64,000 bases of DNA from Candidatus Marinacidobacterium sp. (GCA_965220965.1 OZ244852.1:2688001-2752000); one strand, 5' to 3'. Positions 59,730 through 62,988 are shown, counted from the first letter of the stretch. The notes: generated by a model from the sequence alone, not told the origin. Program-made: numbers and translations.

Positions 59730-59745
59730 TGGAATGCCGTTTGCT
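59730..59745 (+). promoter_or_regulatory. Sigma54-type -24/-12 promoter upstream of the Gly-Asp repeat gene
   Basis: TGGAATG-CCGT-TTGCT against consensus TGGCACG-N4-TTGCW; GG (59731-32) and GC (59743-44) are exactly 10 nt apart. Confidence 0.6.
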
Positions 59746-59765
59746 TGGTTCGGTTCCGAGCGCAT

Positions 59766-59799
59766 AACGTGAGGCCGGGAAGAACGTGAGACCGGGAAG
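59766..59799 (+). repeat. 17-bp tandem direct repeat in the leader
   Basis: AACGTGAGGCCGGGAAG followed directly by AACGTGAGACCGGGAAG (1 mismatch). Confidence 0.8.
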
Positions 59800-59950
59800 G
59801 ATGATGCCGCCGAGGCCGAAGCAGTCGTTTTCTGTTCCGGCGGGAAGGCTGTGCGCCCCGCGCGAGGGAGACTGGCGCAGGTCGGCCCTCGATCCCCGGA
59901 CGAGGGCGTCCGGCGCCGGATCAGCCTCGGACCCCTTCGGAGCGGCGGAC

Positions 59951-60649
59951 GTGGGACTCCCGCCGCGCTCGATCTGGCGCGCGCTGGTGGCGTTGCTGAT
60001 CCTGTTGGCCCTCGTCAGTTGGAGTTGCGCCGTTGACGGGAATCCGTTGGCGCCGGCGACCCCGACGCCCGCGAACCGGGCGGCGCTGCTCGCCGGCTTC
60101 GCCGCTGGCGGCGGGGATGGGGACGGCGACGGCGACGGTGATGGCGATGGCGACGGAGACGGGGATGGCGACGGAGACGGGGACGGGGACGGTGATGGCG
60201 ATGGAGACGGCGACGGCGATGGGGATGGAGATGGGGACGGCGATGGCGACGGGGACGGCGATGGAGATGGGGACGGAGACGGGGACGGCGATGGAGATGG
60301 GGACGGAGACGGGGACGGCGATGGCGACGGTGATGGCGACGGCGACGGGGATGGCGACGGGGACGGGGATGGCGACGGGGACGGGGATGGCGACGGCGAT
60401 GGAGATGGCGACGGCGATGGAGATGGCGACGGCGACGGAGATGGCGACGGCGACGGGGATGGCGACGGAGACGGGGACGGCGACGGCGATGGAGACGGGG
60501 ACGGCGACGGAGACGGCGATGGTGACGGGGACGGCGATGGAGACGGGGACGGCGATGGTGACGGGGACGGCGATGGTGACGGGGACGGCGACGGCGACGG
60601 GGACGGTGATGGCGACGGCGATGGGGATGGAGACGGCGACGACTGGTAG
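59951..60649 (+). CDS. Exported or membrane-anchored poly(Gly-Asp) protein
   Basis: GTG 59951 after GGAG (in-frame alternatives 59786, 59801, 59804). Hydrophobic segment [19 protein letters not shown] (possible lipoprotein Cys), a short Pro/Ala linker, then (GD)88-D-W-stop. All variation in the tract is synonymous for Gly-Asp. Confidence 0.75.
60113..60640 (+). repeat. 88 x 6-bp GGN-GAY repeat
   Basis: 528 nt of GGN GAY units using all four Gly codons and both Asp codons, with no interruption or frameshift. Confidence 0.97.
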
Positions 60650-60664
60650 CGACCTGCCGGGCGG

Positions 60665-61465
60665 TTGGTCGCCGCGGAACCAGGGAGCGGCGCTCCGGCG
60701 CTGGACCACCCGGCGGACACCGGCGCCCGGGAAGGGCGTTCCCCCTCGCCTTTCCTGACCCGGGTGCTCAGCGCCGCGCTGTTCCGTCGGCTCAAGCGAC
60801 GACGCGCTCGTCCCGACGACCCCGCATCAGCCCCGCCGCCAGGGGATTCCCCGAATTTCCTCCGGATCGCTCATGGGATCGATGTGTCGCCGCTGCTTTC
60901 GGAGGTGGCGGCGGCGCCCGACATGTGGCATGCCGACACCAGCCGGCAACGGAAGGTCCGTTGCCAGCGCGACACCCTGAACATCTTCCTGCGCGTGGCC
61001 CGGAAGCCCCTTCCTCCCGGAGCGAAGAACGCCAACGATGTCCATGAGAGCCGGACCGCCCGGTCGGCGGCCATGTTTCCGCGCGCCATGTCCTTCTGTC
61101 GGGAGCTCGCCCGGTCCCGGCGGGCCGAATTGGGCCGCGCCACCCTCGTGTGCCTGAGGCCGGGCGGCTGGGTGCGGCCCCACGTCGACGCCGGCGCCTA
61201 CTACCGGATCCGGGACCGCTTCCACCTCGTCCTGCACAGCCCGGGCGGCAGCCCGCTGACCTCCGGCGGGGACAGCGTCGTGATGCGCGAGGGCGAACTC
61301 TGGGTGTTCAACAACAAGGTGGAACACGAAGCGCGGAATCCCACCGGGGAACCCCGGGTGCACCTCATCTTCGACCTGCTGCCGGCGCCCGGAAGCGGCT
61401 GCTACGCGGCGCTGGCCGGGGAGGCCGGCGCCCGCAGCAGCTTGACCGCCGCGGCCAGCGCGTGA
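60665..61465 (+). CDS. Aspartyl/asparaginyl beta-hydroxylase-family Fe(II)/2-oxoglutarate dioxygenase
   Basis: [15 protein letters not shown]...[21 protein letters not shown] (HxD), [25 protein letters not shown] (distal His), RVHLIFD (2OG-binding Arg). TTG start 15 nt after the GD gene stop; true start uncertain. Confidence 0.85.
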
Positions 61466-62988
61466 GCGGCTGAATCCAGCCGCACCGTGTTGTCGTACGC
61501 CTCGGTGCGCAGCGCGCCCAGGACGCGATCCGGCCGCGAGACGTAGAACGCGTCGGTCTGGTCGCGGAACTGAAGCTGACGCAGCGAGCGTAGTCCGCGC
61601 CGGATCGCGCGTTCGTAGGCGTCGGCCCGGGCGCCGTCGCCCAGCCCCCGGGCCAGCGTCCGGGCGTCCGCCAGCCCCTCCAGATAGGCGCCGGTCGAGG
61701 CCGCGTGCGGCGGTCCGAAGTCGGGTCGCCGCGGGTTGTAGAAGCGCCCCCACAGGTCGGGCGGCAGCTTCCCCCACTGCTGCATCGGGAGGAGCCAGTC
61801 GCTCATCTCCAGCGCGAACTCCGCGAATTCGCGGCGGCCGGACTGCTGGAACAGGGAAACGCACGCCTGCGTGTGCCAGGGGACGAACGCGGGGTTGCGG
61901 GCGCGCCGATGCCGGTCGCGGCAGCGCTCGAAAGCGGCGGCGCAGCGCTCGAGCGAGGGCGCTCCCGGCATCCGTCGGCGCCGGGCCTCCGCCTGGAAGA
62001 GCAGCGCCTCTCCGGAATAGAAGTTCCAGTTCTGCCCTTCGCGCTCCGGGGGGAAGAAGAACGTGCGGAACCCCTCGCGCTCGTCCTCGAGCGAAGCGAT
62101 GCCCCGCGTGAGCATCTCCAGTTCGGAACCGAACTCGCCGGCCGATGGACTCTCCAGGATGGCGAGCGCGGCGAGCGCGGCGGCGCCCAGCTTGGCGCCG
62201 GTCGGCTCCACGATGGCGCCGCGCCCCTCGCCGATGTTCCGGAAGTACCGCTTCAGGTTGAAGCGCAGGTTGCGGCGGGCGGCCTCACGGATTTCGGCGC
62301 TTCCCCGAAACTCGCCCAGCCGCGCCAGCGAGAGGGTCGCGAGGAATCTTCGAATCGCGTTGTCGGCCTCGGACTCCGTTCCTCGGCTCGGCCAGTACTT
62401 GTAGGGCAGCGAGCCGTCAGCCGACTGGTTGCGTAGCATCCACCGGGAGATGCCCTCCGCCAGCAGGCCGGCGCGGTCTTCGTCGGACGCCGGTTCCGGA
62501 GGAACGAGCGTCGCGCCGCGATGGAGCTCCGTCACGTTGCCGGCGCCTCCCGCGACCAGGAACTGTCGGGCGTCGAACGCGCGCAACCTGCCGTGGACGG
62601 CGAACTCCTCCCGGCTTCGGTTGCGCTTCTCGAGATAGCGCTCCAGCGCCCGCTCGAAGCCCAGATTCCCGGCGATCATCCGCGTCGGCGCGATCCGGAA
62701 CGCCTCGCCACGATCCACGATTTCCATGCCGAGCAGCCCGCGCGCCCGGTGGAGGAAGACCCGGCGCTCCCGCTCCGGCGCCACCGGACGCGGCGCCTCG
62801 GCGAGGCAGACCTCGATGACTTCGCCGGGTTCCGCTCCGACCCGGCGGGACAGGTCATCGAGGCCGGCGCCGGGAATCCAGCCGCTGCGCCGGGCCCGGC
62901 CGCCCCTTCGGATGCAGAACCAGGTGGAGGCTCCGCGCTGGGCCGGCTCCTTCACCGGATCCTCCCGGCGCCGGTTCCCCGTGGTCAC
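61402..62988 (-). CDS. Uncharacterised protein with a probable (alpha/alpha)-barrel domain (terpene cyclase / six-hairpin-like)
   Basis: [83 protein letters not shown]-like helical repeats. Its 3' end overlaps the hydroxylase by 64 nt. Confidence 0.65.
   Translation of the reverse strand: MTTGNRRREDPVKEPAQRGASTWFCIRRGGRARRSGWIPGAGLDDLSRRVGAEPGEVIEVCLAEAPRPVAPERERRVFLHRARGLLGMEIVDRGEAFRIAPTRMIAGNLGFERALERYLEKRNRSREEFAVHGRLRAFDARQFLVAGGAGNVTELHRGATLVPPEPASDEDRAGLLAEGISRWMLRNQSADGSLPYKYWPSRGTESEADNAIRRFLATLSLARLGEFRGSAEIREAARRNLRFNLKRYFRNIGEGRGAIVEPTGAKLGAAALAALAILESPSAGEFGSELEMLTRGIASLEDEREGFRTFFFPPEREGQNWNFYSGEALLFQAEARRRRMPGAPSLERCAAAFERCRDRHRRARNPAFVPWHTQACVSLFQQSGRREFAEFALEMSDWLLPMQQWGKLPPDLWGRFYNPRRPDFGPPHAASTGAYLEGLADARTLARGLGDGARADAYERAIRRGLRSLRQLQFRDQTDAFYVSRPDRVLGALRTEAYDNTVRLDSAAHALAAAVKLLRAPASPASAA

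Follow-up and report, generated by a model that had tools for sequence, protein, structure and literature searches.

The subject of this analysis is a group of three neighboring genes in a 64,000-nucleotide stretch of the Candidatus Marinacidobacterium sp. genome (GCA_965220965.1, OZ244852.1:2688001-2752000), referred to below as the window, with positions counted from its first letter. One gene encodes a predicted lipoprotein with 88 consecutive Gly-Asp units, (GD)88; the next encodes an Fe(II)/2-oxoglutarate (2OG) oxygenase of the Asp/Asn β-hydroxylase family (the hydroxylase); and the third, on the opposite strand, encodes a protein of no Pfam or NCBIfam family that is modeled as a helical barrel (the barrel protein). 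That these genes form one dedicated, undescribed unit is strongly supported, and the gene-level link of G/D tract, oxygenase and barrel is of unusual strength. From this context, we consider it fairly probable that the (GD)n tract is the substrate of the cytoplasmic hydroxylase, which would probably make β-hydroxy-Asp, working with the barrel partner in one protein-modification module.

Co-occurrence of G/D repeats, hydroxylase and barrel

Scanning one genome per species, we obtained 46 loci, with record titles naming Vicinamibacterales, other Acidobacteria, Alpha- and Gammaproteobacteria, Binatia, Thermoanaerobaculia and Poriferihabitaceae. Close homologues of the hydroxylase (55-79% identity) are found at 40 of these loci and distant ones at 6. 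A tract of at least (GD)6 lies in the flank of 36 of the 40 close loci, and in none of the 6 distant ones. In the majority of cases (28/36), the tract is upstream on the same strand, while 3 are upstream and divergent, 4 downstream and convergent, and 1 downstream on the same strand; the total number of GD units per locus ranges from 7 to 112, with a median of 49. The barrel gene is present at 38 of the 40 close loci (56-72% identity). No other gene of the window is shared by the 40 loci, and no transporter or further biosynthetic gene is conserved across them. Two of the loci without a tract, L027 and L037, have short upstream flanks and carry, running off the contig, a C-terminal passenger domain that is characteristic of one GD protein class. 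An earlier reading of the window, made from the sequence alone (the original prediction), had asked whether (GD)n or other Asp-rich open reading frames (ORFs) recur beside homologues of the hydroxylase and barrel protein; as these counts show, they do so in several phyla.

The same association is observed within the phylum. In a sample of 301 same-phylum genomes, strong barrel matches (E ≤ 1e-250) occur in 5, from 4 families, and all 5 also contain a DNA pattern encoding at least (GD)8, about 1-2 kb from the barrel gene. By comparison, the pattern is found in 1 of the 296 barrel-less genomes; these relatives are not independent, and hence no p-value is attached to the comparison. The tract in that one genome, a near-perfect GGCGAT-type (GD) tract, is located at G017:C33:243688-243789.

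What travels with the two enzymes is the repeat rather than any one protein. In the window and in Vicinamibacterales, the GD protein consists of a lipobox and the tract only. Elsewhere, a lipobox (FLLNAC-GGGG) and tract are followed by a TbpB-like β-barrel domain (a weak match, E 3.9e-4, below cut-off), or a conserved signal ending in QEA[HR]A precedes a tract with either a short tail or a large repeated domain of no family. The tract is also joined to an S8 subtilase or to RTX repeats, and DUF5666 proteins bear a C-terminal tract or polyAsp. The G/D repeat is the only element common to all of these architectures; their N-termini and passenger domains differ, and all are predicted to be exported. 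The label of a peptide that is ribosomally made and modified after translation (RiPP), which the original prediction had applied to the arrangement, is thus only a loose fit, since the putative substrates are not leader-peptide precursors but proteins with Sec-, lipoprotein- or RTX-type export, many of which bear large passenger domains.

The two enzymes are also found fused. Among 16 longer hydroxylase-containing proteins, P0241, P0242 and P0243 (767-831 aa) carry the hydroxylase domain, and residues 55-592 of P0243 match the barrel profile (hhalign probability 100, E 7e-102, 44% identity). In a further protein, P0253 (1196 aa), the barrel-hydroxylase fusion is joined by a glycosyltransferase domain of the GT61 family (PF04577, E 1.2e-21). 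A metagenome scan with P0243 gave 80 loci, 7 of which (L056-L062, GC 0.37-0.53) encode fusions and represent an independent, lower-GC lineage. Directly upstream of the fusion, 5 of the 7 have (GD)18-40 ORFs with ordinary signal peptides and short tails (WDW, GWYDD, AT), while the remaining 2 have less than 360 nt of upstream DNA. The fusion loci also hold GD-RTX and polyAsp-RTX proteins. In one of them (L057:5675-6745, + strand; also in L061), the RTX-repeat protein has pure poly-Asp runs (D32, D11, D10 and others) split by GIG, and it shares its cluster with two GD proteins, a two-component system and the barrel-hydroxylase fusion.

At 67 loci of the same scan, we observe the hydroxylase only (~37-53% identity), with no barrel. 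In the two barrel-less ORFs that were scanned, the hydroxylase is the N-terminus of a ~800-aa protein with phosphoribosyltransferase (PRTase)-like and pyrroloquinoline quinone (PQQ)-type β-propeller domains. At 14 of the 67 loci, a tract of the (GGD)n type or a mixed G/D-rich one is carried by a protein 2-5 kb away, and 13 of those 14 tracts are on proteins of one 14-locus family (an IPT/TIG domain is present in both members scanned; no tract was seen in L072 and L087). Two other hydroxylase-only loci, L125 and L126, have a (GD)13 tract, and many of the remaining contigs are short. Judged from these sequences, the barrel-less loci look like a sister system without the barrel, and the hydroxylase clade as a whole tracks Gly/Asp repeats across three partner architectures. 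The barrel-less loci (L068-L134) come from soil/peat-type metagenome contigs, for example L074:7872-10304(+) and L074:10444-11646(+); in the 13 tract-bearing proteins of the 14-locus family, the (GGD)n tract is C-terminal, and they are encoded downstream, near the hydroxylase fusion.

Fusions of the barrel extend beyond the hydroxylase. Among the best 150 barrel relatives, 22 exceed 700 aa, and 7 of these carry PF05118, in both domain orders. The others carry Mur_ligase_M+C (4; P0263, P0281, P0299 and P0346), PGA_cap of the CapA type (3; P0394, P0400 and P0402), ATP-grasp (2; P0324 and P0348), FAD-binding plus methyltransferase (1; P0291), or nothing recognized (5). Enzymes that synthesize anionic poly-amino acids include the Mur-ligase-type PgsB/CapB, CapA (PGA_cap), and ATP-grasp ligases of the RimK or cyanophycin type. 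The company of these domains suggests that the barrel family works with acidic amino-acid polymers in general.

The three genes of the window

The window is ~72% GC. The longest ORF containing the tract in the ORF list, from a GTG at 59786 to 60649 (+), reads ...LLALVSWSC...AAGG(GD)88DW*, which bears out the signal or lipoprotein N-terminus and (GD)88-DW described in the original prediction. The probable coding sequence begins at GTG 59951, with GGAG 8 nt upstream, and encodes 232 aa (59951..60649, +). Within it, the (Gly-Asp)88 tract (60113..60640) runs without interruption and is followed by Asp-Trp-stop. It is the single (GD)n gene in the 3.25-Mb genome. In the repeating hexamer, positions 1, 2, 4 and 5 are invariant over all 88 units and only third codon positions vary (GGN: C39/G26/A16/T7; GAY: C55/T33), which argues for selection on the peptide rather than a fresh DNA slippage array. 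The DNA of the tract has diverged while the encoded peptide stayed perfect; TRF reports periods of 18 and 30 with 81-85% match, and the GC skew across the tract is +0.4 to +0.5.

Aligned with its relatives, the GD protein probably has a lipoprotein-type anchor at its N-terminus. The predicted signal peptide (59951..60028) ends ...LVSWS-C, with the Cys codon at 60026-60028. Although the lipobox (...LALVSWS-C) is atypical at positions -3 to -1, the Cys lines up with the canonical lipoboxes IASC, ITGC and VASC of related Vicinamibacterales loci, and the same ...LLP.GPS... segment follows the Cys in the window protein and in these relatives. Matches of the tract to the Pfam family TrAA12 (51.5 bits) and to NCBIfam MSCRAMM models were rejected as homology, being low-complexity matches to Gly/Asp- or Ser/Asp-rich stretches. 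Low complexity also affects the assemblies themselves: runs of unknown bases (X in translation) or masking inside the tracts of L007, L011 and L012 shift the frame. With tracts broken or masked in three public assemblies, GD genes are likely under-counted.

The hydroxylase (60665..61465, +) matches PF05118 with 65.5 bits (cut-off 22.6, E 6.7e-18), and its H-x-D...H...R ligands are intact, as originally predicted. Numbered from GTG 60764, these are H140 (at 61181), D142 (61187), H188 (61325) and R198 (61355), with ligand roles assigned by analogy, and they are invariant in 41/41 hydroxylase sequences. Conservation begins only at about residue 63, so that GTG 60764 is an equally possible start; the 15-nt gap to the GD gene in the original prediction holds with the TTG start and becomes 114 nt with the GTG. 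Depending on the start, the window protein has 233-266 aa, compared with 192-241 aa in homologues, and the median isoelectric point (pI) over the 41 hydroxylases is 9.5. The AlphaFold2 (AF2) model (predicted local distance difference test, pLDDT, 84) has effectively tied fold neighbors in proline 3-hydroxylase (Z 15.5), L-Pro cis-4-hydroxylase (14.5) and AspH (14.3), while a sequence search of solved structures places the free-proline hydroxylase 4p7w (E 1e-7) ahead of AspH (E 1.4e-5). The Pfam scan finds the oxygenase domain only, with no TPR domain as in AspH proper, and no ORF with an EGF domain was found among the neighbors scanned. The NCBIfam scores fall far short of the cut-offs for LpxO (15.7 bits vs. 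500) and OlsC (12.2 vs. 450).

The gene for the 528-aa barrel protein (61402..62988, -) is convergent with that of the hydroxylase and overlaps its 3' end by 64 nt. As the original prediction had proposed for this uncharacterized protein, a helical barrel is modeled: the AF2 prediction (pLDDT 85.5, predicted TM-score 0.88) has a β-rich N-domain (residues 21-160, nt 62509-62928) followed by an (α/α)6 six-hairpin barrel (residues 165-525, nt 61414-62496). The closest solved structures by VIA-align are the cellobiose 2-epimerase 4z4j (Z 28.6, root-mean-square deviation 3.4, 327 residues aligned), the mannose isomerase 5x32 (Z 27.5) and the glycoside hydrolase family 76 (GH76) enzyme 6shm (Z 26.9), with terpene cyclases next at about 25. 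Overall, these structural neighbors span Z 26.9-28.6 and deviations of 2.7-3.4 over 299-328 aligned residues, at a sequence identity of 11-12%. Foldseek finds the fold match at E 1e-5, and language-model neighbors fall in "six-hairpin glycosidase-like" clusters. At the sequence level, no consistent Pfam family is obtained over 39 members even at E ≤ 1, there is no NCBIfam match, and a search of the PDB with the barrel profile gives nothing meaningful; a match to NAT_N was rejected, as it reaches only 19 bits, below cut-off, in 4 of the 39 members. The family itself is large: a full profile search of 1.84 billion representatives yields 472 clusters at E ≤ 1e-30, 1192 at 1e-10 and 1999 at 0.001. 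Residues H372, H428, H509, E327 and D397 are among those that are invariant in the barrel protein. Complex prediction for barrel and hydroxylase gives a score of 0.01, which is no verdict on complex formation.

One distant same-phylum relative of the barrel forms the C-terminus of a 1006-aa protein at L136 (G037:C39, 82-3102, +), which also contains an AMMECR1 domain (E 1.7e-15); its N-terminus, judged by eye, resembles a PRTase. Downstream are an ORF with a radical-SAM-like CxxxCxxC region and an acetyltransferase-like ORF, and the locus looks like a different peptide-modification cluster.

The σ54-like promoter of the original prediction, TGGAATGCCGTTTGCT at 59730..59745 (+; TGG-N8-TTGCW), is probably not functional: the window contains 1 match to this motif where 0.74 are expected by chance, and only 2 of 36 relatives have one within 900 nt upstream of the GD tract. 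We therefore reject it as a promoter. A scan of 59400-63200 returned neither σ70-like nor terminator-like sites. Between the σ54-like motif and the probable GD start lies a 17-nt direct tandem repeat with the unit AACGTGAGACCGGGAAG (59766..59799, +; TRF period 17, 2.0 copies, 94% match), which could be an operator or attenuator.

Few other genes accompany the unit. The only further recurrent neighbor, at 16 of the 40 close loci and mostly proteobacterial, is a membrane-anchored regulator of the LuxR/GerE type with a helix-turn-helix, two predicted transmembrane helices and the motif ...WLIIKGYRFSEIA...; it was named by eye, with no Pfam match at E ≤ 0.01. Examples are L010:8347-9174(-) and L011:3583-4269(-), with others in L013, L014, L017, L020, L022, L023 and elsewhere. 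In the window, the ORF at 63017-63979 (-) has a weak match to the catalytic domain of the RuBisCO large chain (E 1.2e-5, below cut-off) and a C-terminal Cupin_2 domain; it is not conserved beside the module in the other loci.

Proposed mechanism and alternative explanations

In the mechanism that we propose, the (GD)88 protein would be made in the cytoplasm and its tract modified ahead of Sec/lipoprotein export. The adjacent soluble oxygenase would act on the Gly-Asp tract, most likely by β-hydroxylating Asp at many sites. The Asp β-carbon is the presumed target because only Gly and Asp are available, the namesake reaction of the family is on Asp, and SmaO, an oxygenase discussed below, hydroxylates Asp as well. 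The barrel protein may either hold the acidic tract for the oxygenase or perform a second step on the (hydroxy)Asp side chain, for which sugar or ribosyl attachment or trimming, epimerization, elimination and ligation are candidates; by analogy, the barrel fold and the company of GT61 and PRTase domains point to sugar chemistry at the hydroxyl thus installed. The cell envelope would then bear a polyanionic brush, anchored by lipid and heavily modified, and in relatives the tract would serve as a module on secreted peptides, surface lipoproteins, subtilase and RTX proteins. Asp-Gly is a classic hot spot for succinimide and isoAsp formation, and it is conceivable that the modification blocks or exploits this isomerization. 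The tract as substrate, Asp β-hydroxylation, catalysis by the barrel and any physiological role, such as cation binding, resistance to proteases or isomerization, or host interaction, are what we infer from the gene-level association.

Several observations weigh against this mechanism. Two close hydroxylase loci, L002 and L009, have no GD tract within 6 kb; the L002 genome has one on the same strand, ~6.8 kb upstream provided that contig numbering corresponds, and in the L009 genome it lies ~1.2 Mb from the hydroxylase locus. Conversely, genome G017 has a GD tract without a barrel match, the sole exception among the 296 barrel-less genomes. The barrel fold is typical of sugar-active rather than peptide-active enzymes. 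The nearest solved relatives of the hydroxylase by sequence are free-proline hydroxylases, and the label "Asp β-hydroxylase" is a family-level guess from sequence, as PF05118 also holds lipid hydroxylases. Neither enzyme has a signal peptide, and therefore the tract would have to be modified first and then exported, at 176 very acidic residues. Finally, the median pI over 39 GC-rich barrel homologues is 9.7, while the fusion proteins span pI 6.0-9.4 with three at 6.0-6.4; we therefore reject a basic barrel that grips the polyanion as a general property.

Some of these points favor a different explanation, in which the enzymes act on a free amino acid, lipid or sugar-like metabolite and the GD protein is a co-functioning partner, for example a Ca- or Fe-binding envelope protein that uses or buffers the product or cofactor. 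By both sequence and fold, the hydroxylase is nearest to free L-proline hydroxylases among solved structures, the barrel has the fold of sugar epimerases, isomerases and glycosidases, and the hydroxylase gives faint NCBIfam signals for LpxO and for a hydroxylase of non-proteinogenic amino acids (15-16 bits, far below cut-offs). However, the association follows the G/D repeat across three architectures of the enzymes and no fewer than five unrelated ones of the repeat proteins, which is hard to explain unless the repeat is recognized, and the 40 loci conserve none of the transporter or additional biosynthetic genes noted above. We therefore regard action on a small metabolite as unlikely. Less likely still is a tract that stays unmodified and acts as an acidic spacer or stalk, in the manner of other low-complexity linkers, with the cytoplasmic partners linked to it non-catalytically through chaperone-like solubility, export competence or regulation. 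Many relatives do place the tract in a linker-like position, with a lipid anchor or signal peptide on one side and a folded passenger domain on the other, and the enzyme partners are mostly basic in GC-rich lineages. Yet the invariance of the Fe and 2OG ligands (H-x-D...H...R, 41/41) indicates that catalysis is under selection, and some mature proteins would be nearly tract alone, which speaks against a mere spacer; examples are those with an A-x-A-cut signal peptide followed by (GD)n and a short tail, and the GD protein of the window.

A more basic challenge is that the repeat may be a non-coding hexanucleotide satellite, or that the true gene is the opposite strand. As GGN-GAY is complementary to TCN-CCR, the minus-strand frame over the tract is a perfect (Ser-Pro)n repeat, or (SP)n, that is equally "synonymous", and it stays open for 978 aa (57859-60795, -). 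This ORF, however, runs antisense through a Pfam-supported M20 peptidase gene (58291-59694, on the strand opposite to the (SP)n ORF), whereas in relatives it is the GD frame that joins without a break to signal peptides and to domains of the S8 subtilase, RTX and DUF5666 types, which marks the GD frame as the real gene. The purely third-position variation is moreover kept across genomes of 37-73% GC. Both versions of this explanation are almost certainly wrong, and we reject the minus-strand gene. The (SP)n ORF is a GC-rich shadow ORF of a kind at risk of mis-annotation by gene callers.

Returning to the mechanism of tract hydroxylation, a larger version of it can be drawn, which we put forward tentatively and think rather improbable as a whole. 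Here, (GD)n genes would be templates of a gene-encoded, enzymatically rebuilt polyanion, a ribosomal counterpart of poly-γ-glutamate capsules, with a hydroxyl on every Asp. The barrel, as founder of a large family without annotation (472 clusters at E ≤ 1e-30), would carry out a new reaction on acidic side chains (O-glycosylation or ribosylation, epimerization or ligation). Many carrier genomes may come from sponges or corals, to judge by one family name (Poriferihabitaceae) and by isolate-name prefixes. The unit would have spread horizontally between marine bacteria that are host-associated but unrelated, reaching soil and cyanobacteria-like lineages as well, and its product would form a cation-binding, protease- and isomerization-resistant coat on cells or secreted proteins.

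Relation to known systems

As a whole, the original prediction is partly supported: strongly in its dedicated three-gene unit, with (GD)n recurring across phyla and enzymes that are also fused, but not in its σ54 promoter, while its poly(Gly-β-OH-Asp) product, surface tethering, co-transcription and role in metal capture or mineralization are proposals. It had further suggested that no system of this layout was described; consistent with this, our literature search, with subscription journals and supplementary files outside it, did not turn up a paper in which a hydroxylase is paired with poly(Gly-Asp) proteins.

The closest known system is SmaO/SmaX. SmaO is a soluble Fe(II)/2OG oxygenase that β-hydroxylates Asp of the RiPP precursor SmaA (J Am Chem Soc 2025, PMC12186529; also PMC13097080), and many putative precursors near SmaO-SmaX-like pairs have Asp in Gly-rich regions, with GD/DG motifs named (PMC12186529). 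Hydroxylation by SmaO is reported to be followed by a second dedicated enzyme, and the two enzymes are sometimes fused, as here. There, the second enzyme is described as an HD-domain oxidase that makes aminomalonate, whereas here it is a six-hairpin barrel of no known family; the precursors described are short, with a double-Gly leader and a PCAT exporter, whereas the proteins here are of Sec, lipoprotein or RTX type with 7 to more than 100 repeats. The likeness to SmaO/SmaX is drawn from this description of the system. Neither an HD domain nor a PCAT was found in the five window ORFs scanned.

The hydroxylase shares its PF05118 family and double-stranded β-helix fold with AspH (5jqy, 5apa and others), whose namesake reaction is protein-Asp β-hydroxylation. 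It differs in having no TPR domain, EGF-domain substrate or membrane anchor, in its length of ~200-230 aa and in its predicted cytoplasmic location, and by sequence it is no closer to AspH (E 1.4e-5) than it is to the free-proline hydroxylases. For the barrel, the acylglucosamine 2-epimerase (AGE)-superfamily epimerases and isomerases and GH76 (4z4j, 5x32, 6shm) share the (α/α)6 fold, but at 11-12% identity and with no Pfam or PDB sequence match; the barrel protein here has an extra β-rich N-domain and a non-carbohydrate gene context. Its family keeps company with the Mur_ligase, PGA_cap and ATP-grasp domains of anionic poly-amino-acid synthesis through fusion. Those polymers are non-ribosomal, whereas the polyanion here is gene-encoded.

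A further parallel, by analogy, is offered by the staphylococcal Ser-Asp repeat (SDR) adhesins, which are modified by the glycosyltransferases SdgA/SdgB (PMC3794999, PMC8561734). There, dedicated enzymes are reported to act along the length of long X-Asp dipeptide repeats of surface proteins; the group glycosylated is the Ser hydroxyl, with no oxygenase described, whereas Gly-Asp has no hydroxyl until one is installed. The GD tract matches the SD-repeat part of the Sdr and Clf models, as low-complexity sequence far below cut-offs, and the relative P0253 joins a GT61 glycosyltransferase to the barrel-hydroxylase fusion. New here are a table of presence and absence over the phylum, the fusions of the two enzymes that have GD genes upstream, the triple fusion with GT61, the sister system with (GGD)n tracts, and the barrel fusions to poly-amino-acid enzymes.

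There is an annotation gap around this system, as the GD genes are low-complexity and break assemblies, while their partner genes are labeled "hypothetical". Should the tract indeed receive 88 hydroxyl groups, no other enzymatic modification of side chains in a ribosomal protein known from bacteria would be as repetitive; the tract would be a new substrate class for the AspH family, and the system would provide a first functional handle on a large unannotated protein family (1999 clusters at E ≤ 0.001). The module would offer genetically encoded poly(hydroxy-acid) materials, and it bears on bacterial polyanionic surfaces in Ca and Fe handling, in host interaction and possibly in mineral nucleation.

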